Source: Malacoraja senta
Taxonomy: Eukaryota
Assembly: GCA_038087875.1 (NCBI GenBank)
Contig: CM075991.1
Coordinates: 10,046,001 to 10,110,000 of the forward strand
Direction: 5' to 3'
DNA: 64,000 bases
Shown: piece after piece, positions 11,207 through 34,525 of the stretch
How positions within the stretch are numbered: position 1 is the first letter of the stretch
How the letters are laid out: every line of letters starts with the position of its first letter
Notes under the pieces: generated by a model
Database searches by the model: none
The model's input: the letters and a program-made list of their open reading frames with translations, nothing else
What the model was told of the DNA's origin: nothing
Made by a program: the position numbers and the translations under genes

Positions 11207-12606
11207 CTAGTCCAATACAATACTTTTCCGGAGAGGTTCTTCCAACTCAAAAGCCCTCTCTCTGTTACATGATAGTGACCTTCGACGGAGTTTTCTCATT
11301 CTTGCCTGGAATGCAATTTTGCCATCAATATCTTCTGGATTTGACATGTTGCACTCCGATTCAATTAACCCAAATGATCTTCTGCGCATTGTAGTACTCT
11401 TGTTTCTTTTCTCCAAATGTTGAGGGCTGGTTACCTCTATCCAACTTAGTCCTTCCCTATTCATGCAACCAGACAGCCTGGAACTACGTCTCACCTTCTT
11501 TTTAGATTTTGTATTTTGAAGAACACCATCTGAATGTTTAATGCAGGTTTCCGGTTGATTAACTGTCTCCAACATACTTGTGTTTATCTGTTCCAGAAAG
11601 CAATGATCACCAAAATTGAAAAGTAGAGATTCACAATTGTCTGTATCCACCTCATCATCGATTTGATAGGGAACAGTTGGTTCAGCAATCCCCTTCCATG
11701 AAAGTCTCTTCCTTCTTTTCTTTCTTCCCGAGAGGTTCTCGTCTTTCTCTTCATTTTCATCTCCTGCATTGACCACACAACATCCATTAAACTTCAGGAC
11801 CTGTTCTGATTGAGTCACATATGGCAAGTCTATTGCATGGAATAACTTGCTTTGTCTGTGGCTGGATCTGCTTCGAAAATCTTCCCGAGCTTCTGGTGGT
11901 GAAATAATATTATCGTCAAAAACAGTAATATCACCCGTCACCGATTCACTTATCGTTTCTTGAGACTTTTCAGATAAAGAGGCACCGATAGGAATCAATT
12001 TCTCCATTTCATTTGGCTCAGTTTCCTCTCGTCTTTCATTGACATCTTCAAGAACATTTGATTCAGATTCCAAAAGAGAACCTGCACCACCGTAATCATC
12101 AGTATTAATTCTTTCAAAATATTCTTCATGTCCAGTCTCCATTTCACACTGCCCTTCAGATGGACTTTGTGTATCTGTTATTCCTTGTTGACTGCTTTTT
12201 ATCAGAACAGGCAGTTTAGAAAAAGGTTTGCTTTTCATCTTTATTAAAGATTTTCCCCTTCTGACATCTTTGGCGACATTATCAGTCCATTTTACTTCAA
12301 ATGCCATGTCTTTCTTATTTTCACATAGAGAGGGTAACTGACTATTATCACATTTAAGATTGTAATCAAATTGGTTTAATCTCCTGGGCACAAGCCGATG
12401 ATCTCCAGTATTCCCTTTCTGAGCTTCACTTTCAACATCTGATTGAATTTTCTGTTCCTTCTCAAAGCAGTGCATCGCTCCCTTTTGTGGTCTTCTTCGT
12501 CCTTGTGGTTTTTGCCCAACCGACTTCCTAAGGGTGCAACCAGGAGTCCATCCATTAGCTAACGACTCAGACTTGGACATTGAATGCCTTCTTCCTCTAT
12601 CAATAC
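11207..12606 (-). CDS. CDCA2: CDCA2 last coding exon
   Basis: 457-aa ORF extends to acceptor CAG at 12609-12607 (phase 1, GIDRGRRHSM...). Basic RRRS motifs near the C-terminus. TAG stop at 11207. Confidence 0.88.
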
Positions 12607-15600
12607 CTGTTTGGTAGAAAACATAAGTTGGGAAATGTTTTCAGAATTGCAATATGGTGGCAGTAAAATATAAAGTTCAATAATTTAACACACTTCCAGG
12701 TTTTTGGTGTCAGACCAAATGAAGCAGAAAAGTAGGTAATGTAATGTAGTAAGGGAAAAAGATGAAATTTAGCCAGTTGAAGTGACTGGGGGACGAGTAC
12801 GATATGGAGATGAATGCAAAGCTATTTTTGTTAAACAAAAGCCAAATGTGCTTTATTGTCAAAGACTAGATGAATGCCAAAATGGATAAATTGATATTAT
12901 TGCAAAAAGTTCAATTAGAAATGACTATGACAACACAAAATTTATACTTTCATTTTCATTTAAAGTGAGCTGTGGAAAAATTCTTATATATTGATATTTT
13001 TTGATGTTGTGTCTCATATTAACCAAACAATGTAGAGTTATTAAAGCATGACCATTACCTGTATCTAGGCTATACCTTCCCTAACTAAATCAATAAACCT
13101 GATTTTAGCACCTCAACTGAGATCAGCTAGGTTGTTAGTTAGTTTGAGATCAGCATGAAGTTGTTAGTTTTTATATCTATACCAACAAACACCATCCTCC
13201 TGTACTTAGGGACATCCCATAACATTCAATTTGGCAAAGTGTTTTCTTGCAATATTAATAACAAGTATTTTGTGTAATCAGTCTCCAGAACAATTCAAAA
13301 CTGTTTGCTGAAAACAGAAAATTAACTTACAACACTGATTTGTTACTTCCAGAATAAATACTCAACCCCAAGTTGCCCAAAGTAGTAAACACAAAAGCCA
13401 TAGGAGCGCTTGCAATTAACAAATGCATTTTAGCTCATGCAATTGTAATTTAATAACATTCAATATCTCAAGCAGCCAAATTATGAAGGAATTTTCTGGC
13501 TTAGAACAGCATAATGACAATAATTACCCGATTTTTTCTCCAACCGTACAAAAGTGGGCAAATAACTTGAAGCAAAGACGTTCAACCCAGTGTATTCAAG
13601 ATTTAAAATGCATCCATTAAAAACCATTAGGATTACACAAATATGATGCAGTTTGGATACCGTTGTGGTGTTGCATGTATAAATCTCTCACCAAGTATAA
13701 AGGCCACATATAATTTAGCTCAAAAGTTTTCCCTTTCTTCCCATTAACTAACCTCAGTTTTTCCACAATTAAAAATGTCAATTAAGCATACTCAAAAAAT
13801 AAATCCAATTGAAAAAGAGGGTCACCACACCAAAGAGGATTTATAGGAATTATGTATGAGAATAATATTCCAACATCCAAAATGAAATTACTTGACCATA
13901 AAGTGGCTCCGACCATTATACCTTTGATCAATTCACTTGCTTTATAGATTAGGTTGTTTCCCTTCCTGAAACTGAAGGGAGAAACCTTCATAACATGTGT
14001 TCCTTTATAAATATAAAATGTTACTTACCCTCAAGATGAATCAGACTGGTTCTCTTTGGGGTTTCACATTCCAACATTACTTCACTATTGGAGAAATCTG
14101 TTGATTCAGACCAGATATCCAAAACCTCTGCAATTGGGCTCAGTAATGGCTTCTTTGAAGCATATTCACGTTTTCCATAAAGGCTCTTCTTGAACTTTTG
14201 TTTACACTTTCCTTTAGTTGCCTGCAAAACATATTTGCCATTATAATTTCTATTCTCCTTTACTTACTGTTAAATATGGGGACACGCAGTGATGCATAGC
14301 TGATCCATGTTGTACTAGGACCTAGGTCGTTATTAATGTCACTAGATTTATTTACAATACATTGACAATGATGCAAGACTTTAATGTTCAACGTTAGGCA
14401 TGGCTCTTTGCGAGTAGCAGTTCATGGTCCAAAGAATCAAGAATTTAAGGACCACTTGACAGCACATCCATATCTCTTTCAGGCTGACAATAAATAATAG
14501 CACTGAAGGATCATAGGATTATTAGAGAGATGTCCAGAGCATCAAATGTTTAACTCAGGTCCTTACCCGTGGCCCAGGTATAAGAGATTCTATAGCTCCA
14601 ATCAGAGAAGGTGGCAGCTCTTGTAGCACCCAGCCCAATATCCATCCCTGAATAGATAGAAGTTTCTTGCAGGATTTCACTATGAAAACTACCAACTACG
14701 ATTAATTTAAGAATACATGGCTACAGTTCAAATGAATTATATATTCTATTATGCACTTTTAGATATTCTGAGAATATACAATACACCATATGTTAGTGGT
14801 ATGTTATTTTGTTTCAACTTTAAGTGTTCACCTTTGTGCTTAGCTCAAATGCCTCTTACCATTCCGTCTCTTTAAACGTTGCCAGCTTTGCAAACCTCAG
14901 CGAATTCCATGCTCCTCCAGTTTTAGACTCCCCCCCTCCACTCTCCCGTTTTGCCCCCTCCAATGGTGGCCATGCCATTAACTGCCATGCTCTGGAAGGA
15001 CTTCCAGTAGTTGAAGCTATGCTCATCATCTGATGATAAGTTTCAGTTAATTAGCCTGGAATATTCATTCATACTAAAAAAGGCCAATTCAGTGGGTGAA
15101 ATATTATAGATTTTTAAGAAATATCCTTACAGAATTTACACCAAATACAGAGGACATTGGTTTATAGCACATTAATAAACAAAATCCCAGTTTTATTGCA
15201 TTCCTTCCCCGGAACCAAATCATTTACTAACAATGAAAACTTATTTAAAAGACAATGTAACTGATAAATTAAAAATATTCCAAATGCAAGTGCTTACTGA
15301 AGAAGAGTTCTTTGAAATATTCTTCACATTGCTCTTGATCCTACTAGACCTGCGAGGTTCTTCTTTCGTGGACTCATGGTCCCCTTTTCTAGTTTTCTTT
15401 GATTTTGTGGTTGTGTTCAAAATTACATCTGCATCAAGAGCTTCGTTGCATACATTTTTGTCTTCTATTTCATCTCTCTGTTCAGACAGATTCTCAATAT
15501 TGGGGCAAGGGTGTCCGTTAAAATTAGTTTGCACCCCACCATTGCTGGAGTAATCCGTTTTTTTTTTACCGAGGTATACATCATCTGTTTTTGACATTTC

Positions 15601-18600
15601 AGTTGAGGGCAGGTGGTTCATATCAGATTCAACTACTGATTCTGCTTCTATTTCAGTAGATTCCAACATATTAATTGCAAGAATATTTTTGTCAATGTCT
15701 GGTTGTATTTTTAACAGCTTCTTAGAATCTGGTTTCTTTTTGGTCAGATTTCTGCAAACTGAAGGAGTGCACTTCTTAGCATTTTTCCTCTTCCTCGGAT
15801 GCCCAGAGGAAATGATTGGAAATGGAAGAGTTTCAGTCAGTTCTTCAATTTTCACTTCCAAAACCTTACATGGATATTCATCAGTTTTATTATGACACTT
15901 CTGATTATCTGGTCCAAATTTACATTCTGACAATGGAGATTCAATTTCAAAGTTGATAGATATTGGGTAACATCTGTCTTCTTCAACATTATGTATTCCA
16001 GCAGCACTAATTTCCAGGTCATCTATTTCAAAAATTAAAGAAAAATTTTTAATCAACATATTTCTGTCCAATATATTCCCTTCAATGTTTTTGGCATGCA
16101 CCAAAGTCTCTTTGGAAGTTCTTGAAACAAAGTTCCATGGCAATTAAAAGCATTTCCAGTAGGATTCAAGCAAAATTGTTAACTTACGAACATAGCTAAG
16201 AAGTGCCAGAAGTTTCTAAGTCAGGACACATCATAGACCAGCCATACAATACTCCCTCATGAGACACTTTATAGCTGAGGTCACCATAATAAAGAACAAA
16301 CCCAAATTTCTCCTCCTGCTAATCAAGGACTCTGAAACTAAGTGTAACAACTCAATTACTGCACTGGCTGAGATCAACTTACTACAAACCTGCAAAAATC
16401 AGGTTCAATCATCCACACATCAAGTGGTCACTGGAGAAACTCATACTAATTATTTAAATGTTAAAACAATTACTGCTGAATCATACTGTAACAACATTTC
16501 AGTTCCCAACATAATAGAAATGTTTCTTAATGCTGAGTGCTGGAAACCAAAATTTCAATAAGCGAGTTCGGTATTCTGAAAAATGCAAGGAATTATGGGG
16601 TTTGTCAAAGGTCACTCGTTATAAAGAAAAAGCAAATGAAGCGCTGAACAAACTGTGTATAAATTTGTATCTTTATTCATAATATATGTGTAAAATATAA
16701 TTAATCTGAGGAACCTGGGTGCTAGGTAGCGGGAGAGTGGGGTGTAACAGCGAGAGACTTGGGGCAGATGAGAGGGGGAGACAGGGGGGTGGTAGATTGG
16801 ACCGGCAGAGAGACATTCTCGGCTCCTGTGCGCACACAGACCCACACCCCATCCGCAGCCAGGATCGAACCTGGGTCCCCGGCGCTGCAAGCACTGCCGA
16901 ACCATCACTCTACAATTTACCTGTCCTCACAATATTTAAAATTATCAGTGTTCAATTATTTGCAACATTATCTTAGAAATTATTTTTCCTAAAGACAGAG
17001 GCATGCATAACCCTAATTGGATATAACACAACTAATGAATTAGGAAACACTATTTGTAATACGTGGGCTGAATTGGTCATAACGTAATTTTGATAGACAA
17101 CTAGAAAACCACCCAAGATACCTTGGAAAATGACAAGCAGGGAAAAAAAGCCGTCTTGGGAAAAAAGTAGTCTAGGGAGCTTCCCTGTAATCTCCCCTCA
17201 GCAATCAGACACCATTAACTCTTAAGAACATAGGCTGCTAGTTTTACCACAGGTTGCCATTGGACATTGAACAGTACAGCCACAAGAACAGCTGTACTGT
17301 TCCATGTTTCATGATACATGTGTAAAATATAATTAATCTGAGGAACGGGGGTGCTAGGTAGCGGGAGAGTGGGGTGTAACCACTCGTGTCTGGTAAATCG
17401 TGTCTGACAAATCTTATAGAATTTTTTGAGGATGTAACTAGTAGAGTGGATAGGGGAGAACCAGTGGATGTGTTGTATCTGGACTTTCAGAAGGCTTTCG
17501 ACAAGGTACCACATAAGAGATTAGTATACAAACTTAAAGCACACGGTATTGGGGGTTCAGTATTGATGTGGATAGAGAAGTGGCTGGCAAACAGGAAGCA
17601 AAGAGTAGGAGTAAACGGGTCCTTTTCACAATGGCAGGCAGTGACTAGTGGAGTACCGCAAGGCTCAGTGCTGGGACCCCAGCTATTTACAATTTATATT
17701 AATGATCTGGATGAGGGAATTGAAGGCAACATCTCCAAGTTTGCGGATGACACTAAGCTGGGGGGCAATGTTATCTGTGAGGAGGATGCTAGGAGACTGC
17801 AAGGTGACTTGGATAGGCTGGGTGAGTGGGCAAATGTTTGGCAGATGCAGTATAATGTGGATAAATGTGAGGTTATCCACTTTGGTGGCAAAAACAGGAA
17901 AGCAGACTATTATCTAAATGGTGGCCGATTAGGAAATGGGGAGATGCAGCGAGACCTGGGTGTCATGGTACACCAGTCATTGAAAGTAGGCATGCAGGTG
18001 CAGCAGGCAGTGAAGAAAGCGAATGGTATGTTAGCTTTCATAGCAAAAGGATTTGAGTATAGGAGCAGGGAGGTTCTACTGCAGTTGTACAGGGTCTTGG
18101 TGAGACCACACCTGGAGTACTGCGTACAGTTTTGGTCTCCAAATCTGAGGAAGGACATTATAGCCATAGAGGGAGTGCAGAGAAGGTTCACCAGACTGAT
18201 TCCTGGGATGTCAGGACTTTCATATGAAGAAAGACTGGATAGACTTGGCTTATACTCGCTAGAATTTAGGAGATTGAGAGGGGATCTTATAGAAACGTAC
18301 AAAATTCTTATGGGGTTGGACAGGATAGATGCAGGAAGATTGTTCCCGATGTTGGGGAAGTCCAGGACAAGGGGTCACAGCTTAAGGATAAGGGGGAAAT
18401 CCTTTAAGACCGAGATGAGGAAAAACTTTTTCACACAGAGAGTGGTGAATCTCTGGAACTCTCTGCCACAGAGGGTAGTCGAGGCCAGTTCATTGGCTAT
18501 ATTTAAGAGGGAGTTAGATGTGGCCCTTGTGGCTAAAGGGATCAGGGGGTATGGAGAGAAGGCAGGTACGGGATACTGAGTTGGATGATCAGCCATGATC

Positions 18601-21600
18601 ATATTGAATGACGGTGCAGGCTCGAAGGGCCGAATGGCCTACTCCTGCACCTATTTTCTATGTAGCTATGTAACAGGCCCTTCAGCCCCCAATGTCTGTG
18701 CCAAACACTTTGCCTGCCCTCACAATATTTAACATTTTTAGCATTCAATTGTTTGCAACATCATGTTAGAAATCATTTTTCCTACAGAGAGATAATAACA
18801 CTAATTGGATATAACAAATTAAGAAACACTAATTGTATTACGTGGGCTGAATTGGTCATAATCTTAATAACGAACATGGAACAGTACAGCCACAAGAACA
18901 GGCCCTTCAGCCCCCAATGTCTGTGCCAAACATGATGCCAAGACTATCACTTATCTTCCTGCATATAACCCATACCCCTGTATATCCGTATACCTATCCA
19001 AGTCCTTTAAATGCCGCTAACATATCTGGTTTAACCACCACTCGCAGCAGACACTCATCATCCTCCGTGTCAACAACTTGCCTCTCACATGTCCTTTAAA
19101 CTTTGCCCCTCACAGAACTCCACTGGTCAGACCTCCAGACTGAATACCGTCCTTCCACCACAATCCTCTCTTCTAGGAGTAAGCCATTTCCGAATCTATA
19201 TGAACAAGTCACGATTAATCCCATTAAATCTTAATCTTCTGGATCAGCCTACCATGGGGGACTTGATCAAAAGCTTTACTAAAACCCATTTAAACATCCG
19301 CCACCCTACCATCATCGATCATCTTCACCTCCTCAAAAAAACATGATTAAGTCACTGAGACACGATCTAGCGTGTACAAAGCCATGCTGATTGTCCCTAA
19401 TTAACCCATTCTTTTTCAAATAGGAGTAAATTCTATACAGAAGAATCAAAATGTTTGGCACAGACATTGGGGGCTGAAGGGCCCGTTCTTGTGGCTGTAC
19501 TGTTCCATGTTTGTTATTTATTCCTTAGGTTGCTTAAGCATCTTTAGGAAATCTGTTCCTTTATCTCCCGCTTGCTGGTGTGGGTGCTATAATACAATCC
19601 CGGTAGAGTGCTTCGCTCCTTTATTTCTAAGCTCTACATAAACCGTCTCATTGGTCAACATTCGAGAATGTCCTATCTGAGTGCTACCGCGAGTCTCCCT
19701 GATTAGTAACGCAAATCCTATACCTCTTTTGCCTCCTTCTTGATCGCACCGAAAACATCAAAAGCCCACAAATTTGAGCTGCCCTGCTTGTCCCTCCCGC
19801 AACCACTTCTCCACATGGCCAGATCATGGAACTTGACATAGACATGCTTCCATTGTCACTTGTGCAATGATACTCTATATGGTGATATTGTATTCCATAC
19901 ATTTCTTGTACATTCCATACATTACATGCTTCCATTTTAATTTACTTAGCTATTAAAAACTTTTTCTTGAAAATCCTGCAGTGAATAACTGCTATTGCGC
20001 ATCTGAAAAACTGTAGCCCCTAAACCCCATTTCTCATTGACAACTGCTTTTAATAACGTGATTTTCTACAATGCTTGATTTAAGCAGATTTTACACACCT
20101 TCCAATATTGTTCGCAGTTTACTTGATGTACTGTCACTCTGGTCCTTCACAGGGCTGCTTCCATTGCAAGTGACATCATCGGAAGTGCTCTGTTGTGGAG
20201 AGATTACATTGACTTGTCTATTCACTGATTCAGTAAAAGTGCGAAAGTCTTTGGAACACACAAACGTACAATCATTTTGAAATAATTCAAAGCGGTAAGC
20301 CTGAATCCACTGCACTGATAAACAAGATATATTGTAAATAGAATACTAAACCAAGATCTTATATATTTTTTTACAATGCATCACCTGTTAAGTCGACAGG
20401 GACGACTGATGTTTCACTTATCTGTTACTTTATTCCTCCATTCCACGCAGATCTGAATGTGACCTTCTGCACTATTCCAATGAGCCCCAGTATAAGGAAG
20501 AACATGTCCTTGTCTACCCTCCGAATAATATCAAATTCAACACGTACAGGTAACTCACTTTTTCCTGTTGTATTAGAACTAGAGTAGTTCAGGTGTATAG
20601 GTATGCAGAAATATTATGTTTTTCGCTTTCAGACACTGCCTGATCTACTGATTATTTCTAGCATTCTCCTTTTGACTAGATCTCACCCATAGCTCTGACC
20701 TATATTTTGCAGCTTTTACATATCCCTGTTTGATTGTTCTCCCTTTAACTGCCCACATTAGTCAACCAGATAATTTCATAAAAAGTGAAATAATTTCCGT
20801 GATTCCAACCTCATCCCATCATATTATTTTTGTCCTACCTACCTCTCCCCACCCTCTGTAATGAAATTATCTTGACTCTGGTGGAGGTATTCAACTCGAA
20901 ATGTTAACGTTTTCTTTTACTGCAGCTGCTATCCGACCTGCTGATGGTTTCCTTCATTCCTACTTTTATTTCAGATATCCAGCATCCTCAGTTTGTTTAT
21001 AATTGACATCTTAAAGAATCAATCCAAACAAATTAAAAACAAAAAAATAATAGACTTTAATACTTATCCATTGACCAAAGACAAACACAGCTGGAAAAAA
21101 ACCTTACAAAGTGGGAAAGAGGATAATTAAAATTTTCCACAGAACACTGCCGTAATGCTATTTTATTTGCAGGCAGATGATGCGAGCCATTCATTTATGA
21201 TGGTGGTAAAATATTTCTATTATTTGTGATTCGGAATTTTTAGTTTGAATGTTCCAAAATGTTAGATATGATTTTGTCTGCAGTTTACCACATTATGCAA
21301 TTAATCAATTGGAACATGTGATGTTTGTTTCAAAAAGACATGCAAAGATTGACCCAGTTACACTGATATAGAGAGTTCTGTCATGTATGTGAATAATGAT
21401 AATGGTTATACATAAATAGCTTTGGGGACAGCTATAAAATGATCTTACTTCTCTGGAATGCAGGATGACTAACAAGAATAAGAATAACTTTATAAACAGG
21501 TGGAAAAGTTTTAAATGATTACATCACTTAAAAGCATCCATTAGAACTGTAAAATTAGATGGAGAAAAATGATCTATTTGAAAAATATGCTCTTGCCCAC

Positions 21601-24600
21601 TGCATTAATACCCGAGTTAGCAGCTCTGAAATGTTCAAATAAAAATGAAGCTATTACAATATTGCAAGAATAATATGAAATAACTAATATGGATTGAATA
21701 ACACCCACAATATGGTTAAGCAGCAACTAGACAGTCGTAGAATGATAAGCAGTAATACAAACAAAAAAAGTCAGATATGCAGGGAGATGTTAAAACGTTC
21801 TTGCATACTACAGTTCCAAATATTGTAATGTAAAAAAAAATCAGAAACAGCAAATGCGAGAAATTGAAAAACAAAAAATGCTGGAAACATTAAGCAGTTC
21901 TGATACACTGCTGCTAGGGAATTTTGTCCTTCAAGACGATGGTTGAAATTCAGGATGAATTCTTCATTACATTTTTTTTTTTGGCTATTCTTTTTTAGGT
22001 TTAGAAAATAATGGGCAGCATTTGTCAAAGTGTCTTATGTGCTCTCCCAGCAGACGCGAGATCTAATGATGTTCTCTTGCATTAAAGGGAAGGAGTATGT
22101 TGTAACCAAGACTACAAGCAACTGGTTTCCAGTTATATTTACAGACGGGTGATATGTAGGCCAAGATTAAAGAGACATGGGCTTGCCTTCACAAAGGCGA
22201 CTCATCATCATATGCACTTGATCCTAGAGGTTTCTTAGAAAGAAGCACTCAAGTGAAGATATTTCCTGTTTTTAAACACAGATACCAGTTATACGATTAT
22301 TAAAAAGGCAAAATGGATGCCAAATCACACAAAGGGGGATCCAAGAACAAGCCGTTTCTATTTTCTCAAGTGCTTAATGTTGGTCTAATCACCTCTGCAA
22401 TGGAATCTCAAAAACATAGGCCAAAAGCTTTTAGTCTACTCAGGTTTTGCTGATGTGAAAATGAACCCTCAGCATCTTTCAAACAAAGCATTTTGCTGCT
22501 TATGACAAGATCCATTTTGTGAGCAAAACTATTTCCATTGGAGAGTAAGAAAATCAAACAAACTCTAGTTGTCATAAGTGGGTAAACATGAGCAACAAGC
22601 AACTAGGAGGGAGAGATAGATCAACCATGATTGAATGGTGGAGTAGACTTGATGGGTCGAATGGCCTAATTCTACTCCTATCGCTTATGACCTTATAACA
22701 AGTCAGATTGACCAGTGGTTGGAAGTGCACATTTTCATGGCTGTGGTATATCATCAACACCAGCTCTTTCTCCACACCACCCTGCCTTCCTACCTAACAA
22801 GGAAAAGGAGCAGGGTACAGATGTGAGGAGCCAATAGTGTGCATTATTCTTATGCAACCTAGCAGCAGGTCAGAGCTCACTACACAAGAGCAATGTGTTT
22901 CATTCAATGCTGAGGAATATATGTAGGATTAATTTTAATAATATTGTTTTTTTTGCCCTTAACATATGCAATTACATGCTAAGATGTAATATATTAATTT
23001 AAATTCAAGCAGATCCATCAATAGCTTCAGGTAGAATTTTACTGTAACCGTTCACTTACAATGTTAAAGTTGAACATTAAAGTAGACATCTTAGCACCAT
23101 GGAGCTGCTGCAGGTCCTCGGGTTACAAAAAAAAAATTGATGATCTAGCCAACATTGTGATTCCAAATACCTTTCAGCTTCATTTTTTTAAATTCTGGGA
23201 TCCCACTTGTTTGATCAATCTGAACTCCCAATATGAATACGAATTACCGGAAAGAAAATAAAAAGCAGGCATGTTTACCGTTTTCTCTTCCAGACCAGTT
23301 TTGGTTTTTCCCCTTTGTTTTAGAGCAGAGGGAGGACTATCACTGAAAGTGATCTGCTGATGTACTGGCATTTCCCCTCTGCGTAGAGGTGTATTGGATG
23401 GTAACCTCTTGTCAAACAGCTCAGGCGTCAGCTCTCCGCCAAAAGTCACCTTTTTCTTTTGTGTCGGTTTCCTGCAACTTGTAGACAGAGTGCAGTCTTG
23501 TTCCTCTACAGGAGTAGAACCTAAAATACAAGAATTACAATAATATGTTCTTGCCTTAGCAAATCAACCAATTCCTAACCAAAGATTTTGTTTAGTAAAA
23601 GAAAGTCAGTGCCAGTGTCCAATGAAAGGCAACTGACAATATCACTGCAGGAACACAAAGATAGGTCAGAAGATTGCATGGCTGAAGGGATGGGCACTTA
23701 GGAGATTGGTTCAAAAGATTACGACCCATGCAATCCAGAGTAACTTAGCACACGGAACCCAAAACAGGCTTGGAAACGGAATGTTTTTTTAAAATGTGTT
23801 TGCAAATGGATGTCTATGATTAGTGGCATCCTACTAAGTAGCGAGGTCATTCTCTATCTTTATAAAACCTTGATCAGACCTTAGCTGGGATACTTCCTGT
23901 GTGCAGTTTTGGCCACAAGGCTTTAGGAAGGATGTGATAGCATCTTGGAACAACAATCTTGGAATACAAATACTTTCATTTGTATACTAACAACATCCAT
24001 TAACAAATAGGTGTACCCAAGCACCATATCAAGCATCCTCTACCAACCTGTTTGCCATATACCAGAGAGATGTGGCAGTTCTGGAGCAGAATTATTATTG
24101 TCATCCTGAAATGTGCCCATGAATGCTGCCATCTTACTTTTCATCATTGAAACTCTCTGAGATTCCTAATAAAAAAATCACACAATCATTCAATTAGTAT
24201 AATCTTCTTTTTTTTTAAAAAATGATTGGAGCATTGAGCAATAGTTATTATATACATATTATAATACAGATGAGTTTGTTGCTGTTCTTTTTCTACATTG
24301 TTTTCCAGACAACAATAACTGCATAAGGAAATGGAGTAATTGAATTACTAGTGATTACTCAAAAGTACCTGCATCTTCTGTTTGGCAATATAGCAAATAA
24401 GACTATTGGTCTCTGGGGATCCTCTGGCTCCAACAGAAGACACTCTCCGTGAGCATATTTTTCTCCCTTCAGAGAGTTTTCCTGCAACACAAGTTTGGGA
24501 AAATATCAAGTAGATCTTGGACAGCAAAATGAAGCAGCAGTCTTAACTTGATGTATTATTTCAGAGACAAAAGGCCCAAACACAAACTTTCAAATTTGTC

Positions 24601-27600
24601 CAGAAAAGACATTGAAGGAGTAAGTACCCTTCCAATCAGTGATAATCAGTAATATGGTCACAAGGAAAGAAGACACACCTAAATGAAACATGGCAGATGG
24701 TTAAGAAAAAGTTATTTTTAAATGTTTAATTATTCAGCAAATTATATAATTAGTGGTCCCTGTTGTGTTACCTTTGACAGGTGAAGATCAAATAATCAAG
24801 CAGAGTCATTAATATTCCCAGTTTATAAATGACTTTGAGTTTATAATCCTTAAATTTAATAATGGAAATCTGGGAGGACCATAAAGCCAACAGTCTAGTC
24901 TGGCTTACTTCTTTCTAAAGGACACTGCAGTGGAACGCTTCCTTTGTAAAAGAAAATCTACCTGCTGTCTTACTGGATGAGCAAGCGCAATATTTGCAGT
25001 TTATTTTCTCTTTATATAATTATTCGAGTGACGACTTCATAATCTACAAGTCAATAACAATATTATTGTGTGAAAATGGCAACCTGAGCTGATTGTCAGT
25101 ACTACAGTTCATTTTTACCAAATAATTCCTTTCAAGGAAACATCTTAGAAATGTTCTAAAGCACTCATAGGTTTATTGGATGGGTGATCAATTGGTGAAA
25201 CGAAATGCTCATGCCAGCATTAAAAACAGTTAAACAAATACCAATAATGAACTTCTCAACTAATTTTACACTATTATCGAATAATAATTGCAGGATTACA
25301 AGCCTTGTAATGTTGCAGTGTACAATGTTCAAAGTCCTACATGTAAAGAAAACTTTAAAAGATTTATTATCAATAATGATTGAATATCCAAGCCCAGGTA
25401 ACATTCAGAACAAGGAAACCTTGCAGTGCAAATGACCTTACTCTCATCCCCAAATAACACAATCCAAGGACAAGATCTGTATTGTTTTCTTACTGTATTT
25501 TACTACCTGCTGAATTCAGGTTAAACGTTTCTGGTGTCATTTTCCATTGGTTTGCAGCATTCATTGAAATATCCAGTGAAGGGGATGGTGTTTTTGTAGC
25601 ACAGGATTTGGATTGCTCCGTGTCCACATTCACTAAACAGTCATAATGTCTATATGCAGTATTTTCAGAATCACTCTCGCTGATAGTATCACAGTCACCA
25701 AGTATTGCTGGAAAGGAAGTCCAGGTCTCACCATCTCCACCAATTGCTTGAACTGTGGGTTCTACAGTAGAAAAAAGATAACTATTCTTTACCAACCACT
25801 ACAGATGGTGTGAACAAATTTAAAAAGACCGTTACCAGGTAAAAACAACTTCAATAAATTACAATGTTTACATAATAGAAGTTGTGGAATTGTGTTCAAA
25901 GTTCGGCCATAGCCTTTGTTAAACTGCAAATGAGCATAATGAAAATTGGCCACTATACCACTCGGATAGGGAGGAAGTGGGAAAAAGAGATAATGCTGCT
26001 ATACATTAGTGTAACTTCTACAAAACATACATGTTTGGTAAAGATAGGTTAGAATCAACAGAAGCTCTCTGTAACAAAATAACTTATTCAAATGCACTGC
26101 ATAGTATTTTAACTGTGGATACTTAGGGAAAGTTTTCGAGATGACTGATGCCTAAGTAAGAGCATCCTGATAAGATTCAGCAAGCTCCAGATGTTAGGAA
26201 AGATGTGTAGGTAATCGGGTTTCATCCAATTCGTTGATACCCATTTATTTTCAGAATTTTCACCACCACTATTTTACAGCCCTCCTCCCCCCACTGTCCC
26301 ACCAACCTACCGGGCTGTTTCTTTAATGAGGGCATTTCATCTTTCAGCTATGTTCTTGGTGTTCATCGTATTGTAAGAATACATGCAAAACTCTACCCTT
26401 ATTGAAAATGCAATAAGATCGATAGTTTACCTTCAGTTTCCCAAGTAGCAGATTTACAAGGAAAATCAAGTGGTGTTCTGTCTTCAGAAGGCAAGTCCAA
26501 TTCTGTAGGTGTAATAACTGGCACATCCACATTGTCTGTTTCACAGGTTTCTTCTTGATAGGCAGACAATTGTACTCCATGCTGAGAGTTCACTAGTTTG
26601 GTGAATTTCAACATTTTCCTTTCATTTAAAGTTTGCACAGGACTGTGCCTATTATTTGCAACTAATGGATGTTTAGGAGGGAGCTGCTCTGTTGTTTGAT
26701 CTAGGTTTTCAACTGATGATAATTTTATTTCACGTAAAGTACCAGCTCGTGATTTCCTTTTACCTGTTAATAAGGAAAGTTATTTCTTTACATTACTAAC
26801 AGCAATTGTAAGAAATTAATTGAATAGTTATTCCAACATCGCTGACCACTTGACTGCCAGTAATTTACTGCACTTTAAAACATGAAGGCTTTGCACAAAT
26901 GCATTTTTTTTGTTACAGTATTAATAATATTGAAGAGCTGGATTTACTTTGCATAAATAAAGAAGTGTTGCTAAAATAGTACATGCCTTTGGCTAGATAA
27001 CATTTGGACAACAATCTGCAGCCTTGGACTCTTAACCAGAAGAGGAAACACTGGTACCCTACAGCGCAGCTTAGCTTAGAGAAAACCACTAAGGAAACGT
27101 GCAGAGGCTGCCTGTGAGTGATAGTGCTGTCAGTGCACTTGTTCAGCATTGAGATGCAGGGCTGAAGACGAACCCCTGCCAACGCGGGCATTTACTGGAG
27201 AGCAGCAGATGCTTCAGATGATGATAAATCACCCAAATCCAACTGTCTCTTTCATCATGTCCTGTTGGGTATGGTAGAAGCAACGGTTGCTTCCTCTGTT
27301 TGGCTGCACATCTCTCCCCAGCCTGGAGATTTTCCAAGGTAACAAACATAATGGTGGTTGATGGCCATTGAGCTTGTCACCGAGATAGATTCCGTGGGCT
27401 GGGGAGAGACGGAGTGCCATACAAATAGAGGGAGAGGTGGCTGCGGGAGGCAAAAGCCAGCAGGGGCTGCAGGTCATGGTGTTGGAATATGGGACAGTAA
27501 TGAACTAAACACCACCTTTGATTACTTTCAAAAGGAGCTGATGAGAGAGATTGTAGAATTTAGACAGTCAATCAGAATGGAGCAGGTACCACTGCCAAAG

Positions 27601-30600
27601 CCCATCAAATACCAGCCCTCTCATTGCTTCTATGACTCGTTCCACACCATGCTGTAGGAGTGGTGACCTCATAAATCATCTCATTGAGGCAGGAGCACCA
27701 GCAGAGGGCCAAGCCTTCGAACAGTTGCCGGCAGTGTTGTGCACCATCAGGGAGTTAGGCGTACGTACTAGGCTCCCAACACATCATTGCAGTCAGTGGC
27801 TGATTTCAACGATCACTTAGTGCTGATTCCACTGACTCTCTAGTTCCCAAGAATGAGTGGGGACAGTCTAAGGAGTTGGGACCAATGAGAAATGTATTTA
27901 CGCAGAGACTGTAAATCTTTGCAATTCTATTCCTAAGGGGGCACCGGATGCTCAATTGTTGTATATATTCAATTAAAGGGGAAAGCATATTTCTCTACAT
28001 TGATGTAAGAGGATATGGGAACATTGTGGACTTCAGATACATAAGCTACGATATTGAATTCAGTTCAAACTGCTGCCTGGCCTACTCTTACTTGGATTCT
28101 TATGAGCTTACCAGGTACATTCCTCCTTGCTCTTCTTTCCTTAGGGTGAGGCACTTGCAATTTAAAATCCTGCAAATGTAAAAATAATACATTAAAATGT
28201 ACATCCAAACAAATACCACTATATGCATTTAACAACTACCTCATGTTCTCACTTGTTTGCAACTGTAAAAGGTACAAGGGCGCAGGAAACAACTCAATGT
28301 GAAGAAACTGAATGCTCCAGTCATTATTACAATGCAGGAGGCCATTCATCCCATTCTAACAGAAACAAGGCAATTAATAAATGTTAGTATTTGTTCTCAT
28401 ATACATGAATAAATATGTCAATGTCTGAAATATCAAACATTATACACAAACAGCCCTTGGATAGGATTTGTACAATTATCTGCCCATACCTGTAATAATT
28501 TGGGCACAACTATTGCAAAGAAACTGTTACCCGTCTTCACGCATCATTCCGATTAATATAATAATAAACTTCATTTCGGACTCAAGGTCCAGACAAGGGG
28601 CAACATTACATAAAAATGCATTGCATATTAAAAAGTATCATAAAGTATATAAAATCTTAGTATATCACTTATAAAAGCATCATAAATTATATATTAAAAA
28701 AAAACACAATACATGAATTAAAATCCAGAATAAATGAATGATCAATGTCCTACAACGATTGAATACCTTCAATATGATAGTCATTCTTGGAGAGCTCTAA
28801 TGCCAGTTCCCGAAAACCATATTTTATGACTATCAACAGGTTGGAAAATAGTAGGCAAGCCCAAGCTTGTTCTGGTTTAATCCATCAAATTCCCTATCTT
28901 TGTACCAATGAACAATGTGATTAAGAATAAAGAAATAGGCAGCGAAAAAGGCCAATTTATTTTCCCCTCACTAGCCCGGATACCCTGAAAATCATTATGA
29001 CCAGATCGAGAACATTAGGCTCAGCATATACCAGGGATGATGAACCATGGAAAATCCCAAATCCTATGGTGTGCATTGCTCAGTTCCATCATAGTAATGA
29101 AGCTACTCACAGGCTCAATCTTTTAATAAAGACTTAACCTTCAAAATCACATTTTTAAAAAAAAGACATACCTGTTCTGGTACATATTTGGCGGATCCTA
29201 AAGTCAAGTTTTCAAAATCCTGGTCCTCAAACCTGCACAACCAATTACACAAAATTAAGTACTTTTTAAATTAAAAATCAAAGTAACCTAAATTCTAAAA
29301 TAAAACTTCAAATCTTTCTGCTGCATCTGTCACTTTATCAGGTAGACCAAACATATTGGACCCCCTTAATCCTCAGCTATCCTTGCAATTTCCCAGATAA
29401 TTAGCAGCATCATTGAAAACAAAATGGCAATGGCTTTGTATGAAGAAATAACAGAATAATAAACTGCTTAATCTACAGTTCTTTTTTTTTTGTATGATCA
29501 AGATAAAACAAAAATGTTTTTGGCTATTTGTTCAACTTCAAAGCATACCTGACATCATTTGATATCCACAAACAATATATAAAGTTTTTGTGCAAGCCGT
29601 TAGGTTTCTACACCCAAAAAGTCAAGCACATTGCCTACTTTATGGCAGCAACCAACTTCAGTTATTTGATGAGGCCAAGAACAAACTCAAGAGTTGCTCA
29701 ATTTGGATCAGAATTGCCTTCTCAAATCAGTAATGACTTCATTTATACAAGTCTCTACCCGTTATTTGCATCACTAAACACGAGAACCTATGTTAATTAT
29801 GAAAAGATACATGGTGTAGTTATTACCTGTCAGATTCACTTAAAGCTGTAATAAATGTTTTCATCAGGTTAACATCACATACATTTCCATTCAAAGGTGT
29901 AGCATTATTTAGATTTTTTGAATTCACCTGGAGAAAGGTAAATATGTAATTTATTAAAAGGTAAATCTGATATCACTTTCATCACCATTTAAAAAAGTAT
30001 TCATTTCTCGCATATTGTTATTTAGCCAGAATACCCAATATCTCAAAGTTAATAGAAACCAACGCAATTGCATCAATTTTTCTTCTAATCACTGTTCAAA
30101 ATTATTGCTAAAATAATCTCATAATATTGCATTACAATCGAGTATCCTTTTTTAGATTAGTCCATTGTTACAGAATGTATGCAAATTAACAACAAAATGG
30201 TTTTCTTATCAACACATCAAAATCAAACACCATCTTTAAAACATAGAATACATTTCGTTCTAGCCTTCATCCACCCATTTAAGGTTTGGTGACTACAAGT
30301 GAGTAAAATACAAAGACAAACATTTATAAAAGTTTGAAATATTATGATTTTTAATTACTATCCTACTTCAACTGTTCTTTTGAAGTAGACCAAGTCAGAT
30401 ATAGTGAGTTAGCATTGAAATAGCATTGAGTTAGCGAGCAATAGGCTTTCAATGATGAGAAATTTGAAAGACTTTTTGAAAATTTGAAACCCATGTTATA
30501 ACACATGGGTTGAAGCATTCACTGCTCCCTATAATCCACGTACAGTTCATTTTGCATAAATACACTGTACATAGCTACCACCTTCCTTATACGTTATTGT

Positions 30601-30959
30601 CAATGTGAACAATACCCATATCTAACCTTCCATCTTGCAATATCTGGAAAACAAATGCAACTAGAAATATTTTAAATCTGTTTTAGACAATAAATAATAC
30701 CTAACAATCATTTTTCACATTGATTATATTTTACTGCTTTATCATTCATGTAAACAGAATCAATCTATCTAAAAATCAGCACCAGGATCATACAAGTATT
30801 CTTCCATTCAATACCGTCTCTTGCTCTACAAATTTACGTTAGTATAAGCATTTAGTCACAGTGGCAGCAATACTTACTTCATTGTTCTCGTACATTTCTA
30901 ATTGGTAATGTTCTCCTGCCAAATCAATGTCCTTGGTGATCTCATCAAATTTTGACCCC
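11207..30959 (-). CDS. CDCA2: CDCA2 / Repo-Man (PP1 regulatory subunit, Ki-67 paralog); spliced model join(30878-30959,29827-29927,29172-29232,28112-28169,26431-26763,25507-25761,24369-24481,24063-24165,23279-23520,23171-23219,20099-20314,15298-16022,14029-14221,11207-12606)
   Basis: Phase-consistent GT-AG exons give one open frame of ~1310 aa. Motifs recognised: KKKVTFGGELTPELFDKRLPSNTPLRRG (PP1-binding), VGARGSPETNSLI, MTPETF, KKSLYGKREYASKKPLLSPIAE. There is no Ki-67 repeat exon. Confidence 0.92.
14029..14221 (-). CDS. CDCA2: CDCA2 exon with LSPIxE (PP2A-B56 docking) motif
   Basis: ATKGKCKQKFKKSLYGKREYASKKPLLSPIAE; cag| acceptor and G|gtaagt donor; phases 0/1. Confidence 0.92.
15298..16022 (-). 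CDS. CDCA2: CDCA2 internal exon (low complexity)
   Basis: Lies within the 300-aa ORF; tag| acceptor and TCA|gtaagc donor; phases 1/0 match neighbours. Confidence 0.85.
17386..18670 (+). mobile_element. CR1/HER1-type LINE, 5'-truncated, intact RT C-terminal ORF (397 aa) plus 3' tail
   Basis: YLDFQKAFDKVPH, GVPQGSVLGP, KFADDTK, RPHLEYCVQFW; tail ctattttctatgt. Confidence 0.95.
20099..20314 (-). CDS. CDCA2: CDCA2 internal exon (alternative donor possible at 20123)
   Basis: Open frame QWIQAYRFELF...; cag| acceptor; phase-1 donors AAG|gtgtgt or CAA|gtaaac. Confidence 0.7.
23171..23219 (-). CDS. CDCA2: CDCA2 putative 49-nt exon (IDQTSGIPEFKKMKLK)
   Basis: ttcag| acceptor and AAG|gtattt donor; reconciles phase 0 to phase 1, but requires a 59-nt upstream intron. 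Confidence 0.5.
23279..23520 (-). CDS. CDCA2: CDCA2 PP1-binding (RVxF-type KVTF) exon
   Basis: KKKVTFGGELTPELFDKRLPSNTPLRRGEMP is the Ki-67/Repo-Man PP1-binding domain; ttttag| acceptor and ACG|gtaaac donor. Confidence 0.95.
24063..24165 (-). CDS. CDCA2: CDCA2 exon (ESQRVSMMKSKMAAFMGTFQ...)
   Basis: Canonical splice sites, phases 0/1; resembles the recalled CDCA2 'LRERISAFQSAF' segment. Confidence 0.8.
24369..24481 (-). CDS. CDCA2: CDCA2 exon (RRVSSVGARGSPETNSLICYIAKQ)
   Basis: Conserved CDCA2 N-terminal GARGSPETN motif; phases 1/0. Confidence 0.9.
25507..25761 (-). CDS. CDCA2: CDCA2 exon (...QWKMTPETFNLNSAG)
   Basis: Resembles the recalled CDCA2 'QLGITPESFVRNSAG' segment; phases 1/1. Confidence 0.85.
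26431..26763 (-). CDS. CDCA2: CDCA2 exon
   Basis: 333-nt open exon; cag| acceptor and AAG|gtaaac donor; phases 1/1. Confidence 0.78.
28112..28169 (-). CDS. CDCA2: CDCA2 exon (DFKLQVPHPKERRARRNVP)
   Basis: ttgcag| acceptor and CTG|gtaagc donor; phases 0/1. Confidence 0.72.
29172..29232 (-). CDS. CDCA2: CDCA2 exon (R|FEDQDFENLTLGSAKYVPEQ), end of FHA-like region
   Basis: gtgcag| acceptor and CAG|gtatgt donor; phases 2/0. Confidence 0.72.
29827..29927 (-). CDS. CDCA2: CDCA2 exon, degenerate FHA-like (VNSKNLNNATPLNGNV...)
   Basis: ctccag| acceptor and CAG|gtaata donor; phases 0/2. Confidence 0.7.
30878..30959 (-). CDS. CDCA2: CDCA2 exon, degenerate FHA-like (GSKFDEITKDIDLAGEHYQLEMYENNE)
   Basis: ttttaag| acceptor and GAA|gtaagt donor; phases 2/0. 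Confidence 0.68.
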
Positions 30960-34325: not shown

Positions 34326-34525
34326 NNNNNNNNNNNNNNNNNNNNNNNNNNNNNNNNNNNNNNNNNNNNNNNNNNNNNNNNNNNNNNNNNNNNNNNNNNN
34401 NNNNNNNNNNNNNNNNNNNNNNNNNNNNNNNNNNNNNNNNNNNNNNNNNNNNNNNNNNNNNNNNNNNNNNNNNNNNNNNNNNNNNNNNNNNNNNNNNNNN
34501 NNNNNNNNNNNNNNNNNNNNNNNNN
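34326..34525. other. Assembly gap (200 N)
   Basis: Run of N. Confidence 1.

Follow-up and report, generated by a model that had tools for sequence, protein, structure and literature searches.

The DNA analysed here, hereafter called the window, is a stretch of 64,000 nucleotides from the skate Malacoraja senta (assembly GCA_038087875.1, contig CM075991.1, forward-strand positions 10,046,001 to 10,110,000), and it carries on its minus strand the gene CDCA2, whose product Repo-Man is a PP1-targeting subunit. We regard it as probable that the first exons of this gene encode a spliced, in-frame remnant of a Ki-67-type FHA domain, which is likely ancestral, likely does not read phosphothreonine and, in rays, likely does not fold. 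Judged from sequence comparison, homology of the segment to the Ki-67 FHA domain is near certain, and loss of phosphothreonine binding in the skate remnant is likely. The first-pass annotation, made from the letters of the stretch, had proposed a decaying or repurposed FHA domain left from the MKI67/CDCA2 duplication. A decaying relic of that duplication is supported by a graded series from chimaera through sharks to rays; as for the two fates, decay fits the skate better and repurposing less well, because the remnant diverges at the rate of disordered regions. Two points had escaped that annotation: the chimaera has a near-complete domain, and the common ancestor of cartilaginous fishes had likely lost the pocket Ser already.

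One open frame of 1253 codons is obtained from 13 minus-strand exons between positions 30959 and 11207 of the window, and 1153 of the 1253 codon products are identical to P0008, a 1261-amino acid protein from public read assemblies of a closely related skate. The product of the last exon is 94% identical to a Leucoraja erinacea protein named CDCA2. Coding exon 2 (30878–30959, 82 nt, phase 2 to 0) encodes the 27 residues of the FHA remnant that begin at the GR position, include the H-x-x-L-E strand and end with NE, and coding exon 3 (29827–29927, 101 nt, phase 0 to 2) encodes its second half. Coding exon 4 (29172–29232, 61 nt, phase 2 to 0) supplies the R/FE end of the remnant and a linker, and coding exon 5 (28112–28169, 58 nt, phase 0 to 1) a basic linker. 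AG acceptors and GT donors flank all four and the 333-nt exon that follows, in phases 2, 0, 2, 0, 1, as the first-pass annotation had read them, and the translations agree with the peptides that it quoted. The joins were seen in all four read runs compared (X1, X5, X10 and X15), in a single contig each, with CT..AC ends on the plus strand; the joint 29171–28168 is imprecise in the X10 contig. These runs represent three organisms, which are relatives, and different individuals from the window DNA. No run is recorded as RNA, the kind 'RNA?' being a guess, and the contigs count as transcript-like because their joints are spliced. In X1 (5298 nt) and X5 (5244 nt), the contig extends from the FHA exons into the PP1-binding exon, which bears out the claim that the FHA exons are joined to CDCA2. 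Contigs also reach 157–242 bases beyond 30961, into an upstream exon that gives 10 codons ending ARR, as does P0008. The earlier remark that no GR exon was found needs correcting: this first coding exon is present but shortened, and sharks and the chimaera have FGR in place of its ARR. No match to it was found in the window, in the 200 kb upstream or, at up to two mismatches, in the skate assembly; it possibly sits at a 200-N assembly gap (34326–34525) beside 30- and 41-bp tandem repeats (to 35008), 3.4 kb upstream of the first FHA exon.

On its own, the skate segment has no FHA match in Pfam and no match among PDB sequences, and it is linked to the Ki-67 FHA domain because shark and chimaera orthologues bridge the two in a graded series. 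Residues 20–102 of the Heptranchias orthologue match the FHA domain of human Ki-67 (PDB 2AFF) with E 2.8e-9. A nine-row profile found Ki-67 with E 1.7e-7, the next FHA domain being that of a kinesin (E 1.2), and against 1.84 billion representatives it gave 65 hits, namely two cartilaginous-fish CDCA2 proteins, two bacterial-type FHA proteins and, for the remainder, Ki-67-like proteins. No bony-vertebrate CDCA2 was among these 65, in a kind of search that remnants eroded to the grade of rays would escape. A hidden Markov model (HMM) was built from 50 Ki-67 FHA sequences only, with no CDCA2 included, and 500 shuffles served as control. It gave chimaera CDCA2 100 bits, Heptranchias 62.8, six other sharks 30.8–42.0, the spliced skate exons 14.8, three batoid proteins 12.8–13.9 and Narcine -0.6. 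Every one of these except Narcine outscored all 500 shuffles; for the skate exons, the best shuffle reached 8.4 bits and 0 of 500 equalled the true sequence. When a profile of five batoid rows was compared with the Ki-67 set, a probability of 90% was obtained (E 1.7e-6, score 36.7), vs 10% for bacterial FHA, and 100 column shuffles reached 18.7 at most. At the Pfam cut-off for FHA (PF00498, 20.7 bits), the chimaera passes with 34.7 bits, as do two of six shark species and none of seven batoid proteins (two of which lack the region). In the ESM Atlas, the chimaera N-terminus scored 0.91 to FHA clusters, and the skate N-terminus 0.77 to CDCA2 clusters, which we treat as a lead.

The same segment might be suspected of a chance likeness, or the gene of being a degenerate MKI67 misread as CDCA2, from the missing Pfam and PDB matches, from the failure to find MKI67 in the skate assembly and from the NCBI name of the Heptranchias orthologue, 'Ki-67-like'. 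This reading, already largely refuted, is extremely improbable given the shuffle controls, the orthologue bridge, the CDCA2-only motifs, the neighbours and the separate Ki-67 genes of three related species. The gene is CDCA2/Repo-Man, with an RVTF-type PP1 motif, GSPETN and LYGxRxYAS motifs, no Ki-67 repeats, and EBF and KCTD9-type neighbours. The PP1-binding exon (23279–23520), which is covered by contigs and contains KVTF (RVxF) and the KiR-SLiM, matches Pfam PP1_bind with E 8e-18 (64.8 bits vs a cut-off of 27); its VTF is as in CDCA2, and Ki-67 matches have VSF. In Heptranchias, this region scores 41 bits to the human CDCA2 fragment (5IOH) vs 30 to the Ki-67 fragment (5J28). Regions around GSPETN and LYG are 60–88% conserved against most partner species. 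We take both motifs to be specific to CDCA2, in agreement with the proteins of the profile search, where the chimaera protein is the single one of 64 new representatives to show them, and every Ki-67 lacks both. No KI67R repeat matched in the CDCA2 proteins scanned, and Hemitrygon, Heterodontus and Callorhinchus each have a separate long Ki-67 in addition to CDCA2, recognised by KI67R repeats or Ki-67 names.

Repeated profile and sequence searches gave no usable MKI67 match in the skate assembly, although this search was lossy (all EBF genes together gave only 6 exon matches), and a long-protein search with the PP1 region gave no matches. One candidate proved to be a tandem repeat, and none of 12 translated FHA loci of the assembly was Ki-67-like. 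Rays and sharks have MKI67, and its absence here is most likely a gap in assembly or search, not a loss. The NCBI label 'proliferation marker protein Ki-67-like' on the Heptranchias CDCA2 orthologue (XP_067857719.1) is misleading and was probably given because of its FHA domain. As a separate observation, a Coregonus Ki-67 model has a second FHA domain near residue 1020 and probably represents two tandem genes fused in annotation.

The signature of FHA domains for phosphothreonine binding is given as GRSHNN in section 6 of a preprint (bioRxiv 10.64898/2026.06.18.733134). In Ki-67, all 50 sequences have the Ser of SKEH, and 48 have the first Asn. In CDCA2, none of the 11 species compared that have the segment keeps this Ser (Ala replaces it in 10, Asp in one), which agrees with the earlier report that the phosphothreonine-binding Ser (SxxH) is replaced; the first Asn has become Ala, Ser or Glu, and Thr in this skate. 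The skate signature thus keeps R, H and the second N, with G, S and the first N replaced. Since chimaera and skate CDCA2 share AGEH in place of SKEH, the pocket was likely lost in their common ancestor. Among the landmarks that the first-pass annotation had aligned, H-x-x-L-E, NG and R/FE hold, but N-x-T is weak and partly coincidental, because a two-residue deletion falls at this site and a sister skate has A for T.

Beyond the pocket, erosion was found to differ among lineages. Chimaera CDCA2 is identical to the chimaera's own Ki-67 at 50 of 99 positions, over the full length and without gaps, with an identical 14-residue run over the H-C-K-L-E strand. The GR-to-NE segment has 27 residues in all 13 proteins compared, among them Ki-67 and the CDCA2 of sharks, chimaera and skate; the next shortens from 39 residues (Ki-67, chimaera, Heptranchias) through 38 (Heterodontus) and 36 (Mobula) to 34 (skate), the Hemitrygon row being incomplete. 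In rays, about 20 residues before the GR position are missing and FG is replaced; the skate has also lost five internal residues, and about 25 residues of the FHA domain, an 11-stranded beta-sandwich, are absent from it. Skate and stingray are 56% identical in the remnant vs 55, 56 and 49% in three disordered regions and 71–82% in three motif regions. Among sharks, the remnant reaches 66–67% vs 52–64% for disordered regions, and against the chimaera the segment reaches 37–60% vs 20–37%. The Ki-67 FHA core is 81–87% identical among the same kinds of species, and branch lengths summed from chimaera to stingray are 1.57 changes per site for CDCA2 and 0.23 for Ki-67.

AlphaFold, applied to the skate domain with a 34-row alignment (24 rows Ki-67-like) and no positive control, gave a pLDDT of 46.5 and only a single hairpin at residues 28–42 (pLDDT 56–64 by block). 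Foldseek with this low-confidence model returned no structural match. The FHA likeness that the first-pass annotation had wished to see checked was borne out by the profile comparisons. Two Narcine bancroftii CDCA2 models go from a short first exon, or from their start, directly to the exon matching 28112–28169, and the FHA exons of this ray are either lost or unannotated.

These data can also be read as repurposing, that is, a pseudo-FHA domain that lost its pocket and was kept for phosphate-independent binding, for instance with a partner strand added to its edge strand as NIFK is on Ki-67; it would apply certainly to the chimaera and perhaps to the skate hairpin. NIFK pairs its strand with beta-4 of the Ki-67 FHA domain, according to section 6 of the above preprint (bioRxiv 10.64898/2026.06.18.733134). 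The gap-free chimaera domain with its 14-residue run, the excess conservation against the chimaera, the same Ala for Ser in 10 of 11 species and the fact that the sole structure modelled in the skate is this hairpin all favour repurposing. However, rays show no excess conservation (56% vs 49–56%), deletions take about a quarter of the domain, the Narcine models do without the FHA exons, and the skate has replaced the conserved Cys of the H-C-K-L-E strand, which varies freely among sharks. We therefore hold repurposing to be unlikely. A bolder version, to which we give some tentative but limited credence, posits a pseudo-FHA domain blind to phosphate, folded and under selection since before the chimaera/shark split, with its partner docked by strand addition, so that chimaera, sharks, rays and Narcine would form a series of domains disabled, repurposed and deleted.

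As to origin, Ki-67 protein isoforms, which were compared instead of MKI67 DNA, break at R/FE (P0100), after TLQ (in 5 of 6 isoform groups) and, 15 residues further on, in a manner fitting phase 1 (P0108), and these breakpoints coincide with the third to fifth skate junctions. Of the claim that all junctions lie at the same residues as in MKI67, three of five positions are thus matched; for the first and second, after GR and after NE, the MKI67 counterparts are those we presume from the human gene. A tree (25 rows, 104 columns) placed the CDCA2 FHA segments in one group with support of 99/97 and left its attachment to Ki-67 open. The exons, instead of being retained from the duplication, might have reached CDCA2 by copying or conversion from MKI67 in the cartilaginous-fish stem. 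In favour of such copying, the 14-residue run of chimaera CDCA2 is shared exactly with cartilaginous-fish Ki-67, bony-vertebrate Ki-67s differing at 2–4 of its positions; a tree constrained accordingly is not rejected (p-AU 0.26); and bony-vertebrate CDCA2 is missing from the 65 profile hits. Yet the free tree lacks this grouping, and Ki-67-like phases persist also in the pair of linker exons that follow the domain. In addition, CDCA2 and MKI67 were placed in different paralogous regions in a study of the GnRH loci (PMC6135963), and invertebrate family members have an FHA domain and a PP1 motif in the portions consulted of the preprint (bioRxiv 10.64898/2026.06.18.733134), so that retention needs only loss in bony vertebrates. 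Taken together, copying seems quite improbable to us.

Several observations weigh against an ancestral remnant that has lost binding and fold. The two FHA exons comprise 183 nt and run from phase 2 to phase 2, and hence could be skipped without frameshift, but they are retained in all four contigs. Mismatches to run X1 number 3 in 187 bases of the FHA exons and 44 in 1054 bases of six further exons, which hints at constraint without reaching significance (Fisher p 0.10). Of the signature, the skate still has Arg, His and the second Asn. The AlphaFold result for the skate has no positive control on the same alignment, and AlphaFold of Heptranchias on a shallow 9-row alignment likewise failed (pLDDT 38). 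Finally, the tree gives no date for the duplication, and with the grouping of the CDCA2 FHA domain and cartilaginous-fish Ki-67 not rejected, later copying from MKI67 is possible.

We favour the following course of events for the ancestral remnant. After duplication of a Ki-67-like ancestor, the CDCA2 copy would have lost its pocket before the chimaera/elasmobranch split, and Ki-67 would have kept NIFK-type binding. Constraint then fell stepwise: the domain stayed whole in the chimaera, was eroded in sharks, lost about 20 N-terminal and five internal residues in the skate, and has no exons in the Narcine models. Bony vertebrates would have lost the FHA exons of CDCA2 altogether. The skate segment may now serve as an N-terminal leader, largely without structure, of a PP1-targeting subunit, and Repo-Man would act via RVxF/KiR-SLiM and other short motifs.

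Downstream of the FHA exons on the minus strand, the gene continues with the 333-nt exon, a linker of low conservation (26431–26763; contigs and alignment), and a 246-nt exon (25507–25752). For the latter, two acceptors 9 nt apart (25752 and 25761) are each used in different runs, X10 using the upstream one. An exon with the conserved GSPETN motif (24369–24481; alignment) is followed by one of 118 nt (24048–24165) containing the start Met of the 909-amino acid database model XP_055518259.1. In read assemblies, 352 residues precede that internal Met, the FHA remnant and GSPETN among them; this little skate CDCA2 model, which begins there, has none of these. After the PP1-binding exon come exons of 91 nt (20099–20189) and 725 nt (15298–16022; disordered middle), an exon with the conserved LYGKREYASKKPLLSPI motif (14029–14221; alignment) and the last coding exon, with the stop (11207–12606; its acceptor is possibly off by a few bases). 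A LINE-type reverse-transcriptase frame of 399 codons (17380–18579, plus strand; Pfam RVT_1, E 4e-23) lies antisense in a CDCA2 intron.

Outside the window, EBF exons occupy 9.77–9.92 Mb of the same contig, and the EBF gene, which converges on CDCA2, ends about 130 kb past the CDCA2 3' end. About 215 kb upstream of the first FHA exon is a MYST zinc-finger exon (L033:1836-2306, minus strand); together with a long low-complexity exon upstream (L031:754-2616, minus strand), it probably belongs to KAT6A. A KHA-domain exon, scoring below its family cut-off, lies 2.4 Mb away on the same contig; the KHA-domain gene is adjacent to CDCA2 in human. The names EBF2 (vs EBF3), KAT6A and KCTD9 for these neighbours are our presumption. 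The study of the GnRH loci assigns KCTD9 to that of GnRH1 and both MKI67 and EBF3 to that of GnRH3 (PMC6135963).

So far, the relationship between Ki-67 and Repo-Man has been based on one 40-residue PP1-binding stretch. Ki-67 was called ancestral to Repo-Man on the basis of residues 388–420 in a report whose main text does not contain 'FHA' (Booth 2014, PMC4032110); the human proteins were described as sharing only about 40 residues in the relevant section of another (Kumar 2016, PMC5005033), a passage of a review has Repo-Man probably arising through Ki-67 duplication (PMC8354752), and CDCA2 is named once, as a separate branch, in the consulted text of the 2026 preprint (bioRxiv 10.64898/2026.06.18.733134). 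No publication on an FHA domain in Repo-Man was found, including by a search for CDCA2, 'FHA domain' and MKI67 together, in sources that cover subscription journals thinly. The FHA remnant is a second shared region, and with its matching exon phases it suggests that the duplication took in the entire front end of the ancestral gene. It would also fix the order of events, with pocket loss first and fold loss later, lineage by lineage. The chimaera domain, which occurs in nature, lacks the pocket and is half identical to the Ki-67 FHA domain, may serve as a reagent to separate phosphate-dependent from strand-pairing NIFK binding.

The biology of the skate gene is probably that of ordinary Repo-Man, and its remnant is one step in a series of decaying domains that runs through the cartilaginous fishes. 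Like vertebrate CDCA2/Repo-Man (PDB 5IOH and 5INB), the gene has the RVTF-type PP1 motif, the KiR-SLiM, GSPETN and LYG, no Ki-67 repeats and a convergent EBF neighbour; it differs in carrying about 60–100 residues of Ki-67-type FHA at its N-terminus. Its segment resembles the Ki-67 FHA domain (PDB 1R21 and 2AFF; PF00498) in collinearity, the 27-residue GR-to-NE spacing, Arg, His and the second Asn, and phases at the three checkable junctions; it differs in the replaced Gly, Ser and first Asn, the roughly 20 N-terminal and 5 internal residues gone, an about 7-fold faster change and the absence of a confident fold. Non-vertebrate Ki-67 homologues and fungal bridgin, as described in the portions consulted (bioRxiv 10.64898/2026.06.18.733134, PMC7794384), have a disordered tail and the architecture of FHA domain plus PP1 motif that shark CDCA2 keeps, but they are single-copy proteins and not a post-duplication Repo-Man as in the skate. 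A further counterpart is the Callorhinchus milii orthologue (LOC103190865 / A0A4W3HTZ3), which UniProt automatically names 'FHA domain-containing protein' with no link to Repo-Man evolution; it shares the CDCA2 motifs and AGEH for SKEH and, unlike the skate protein, has a full-length domain above the Pfam cut-off.

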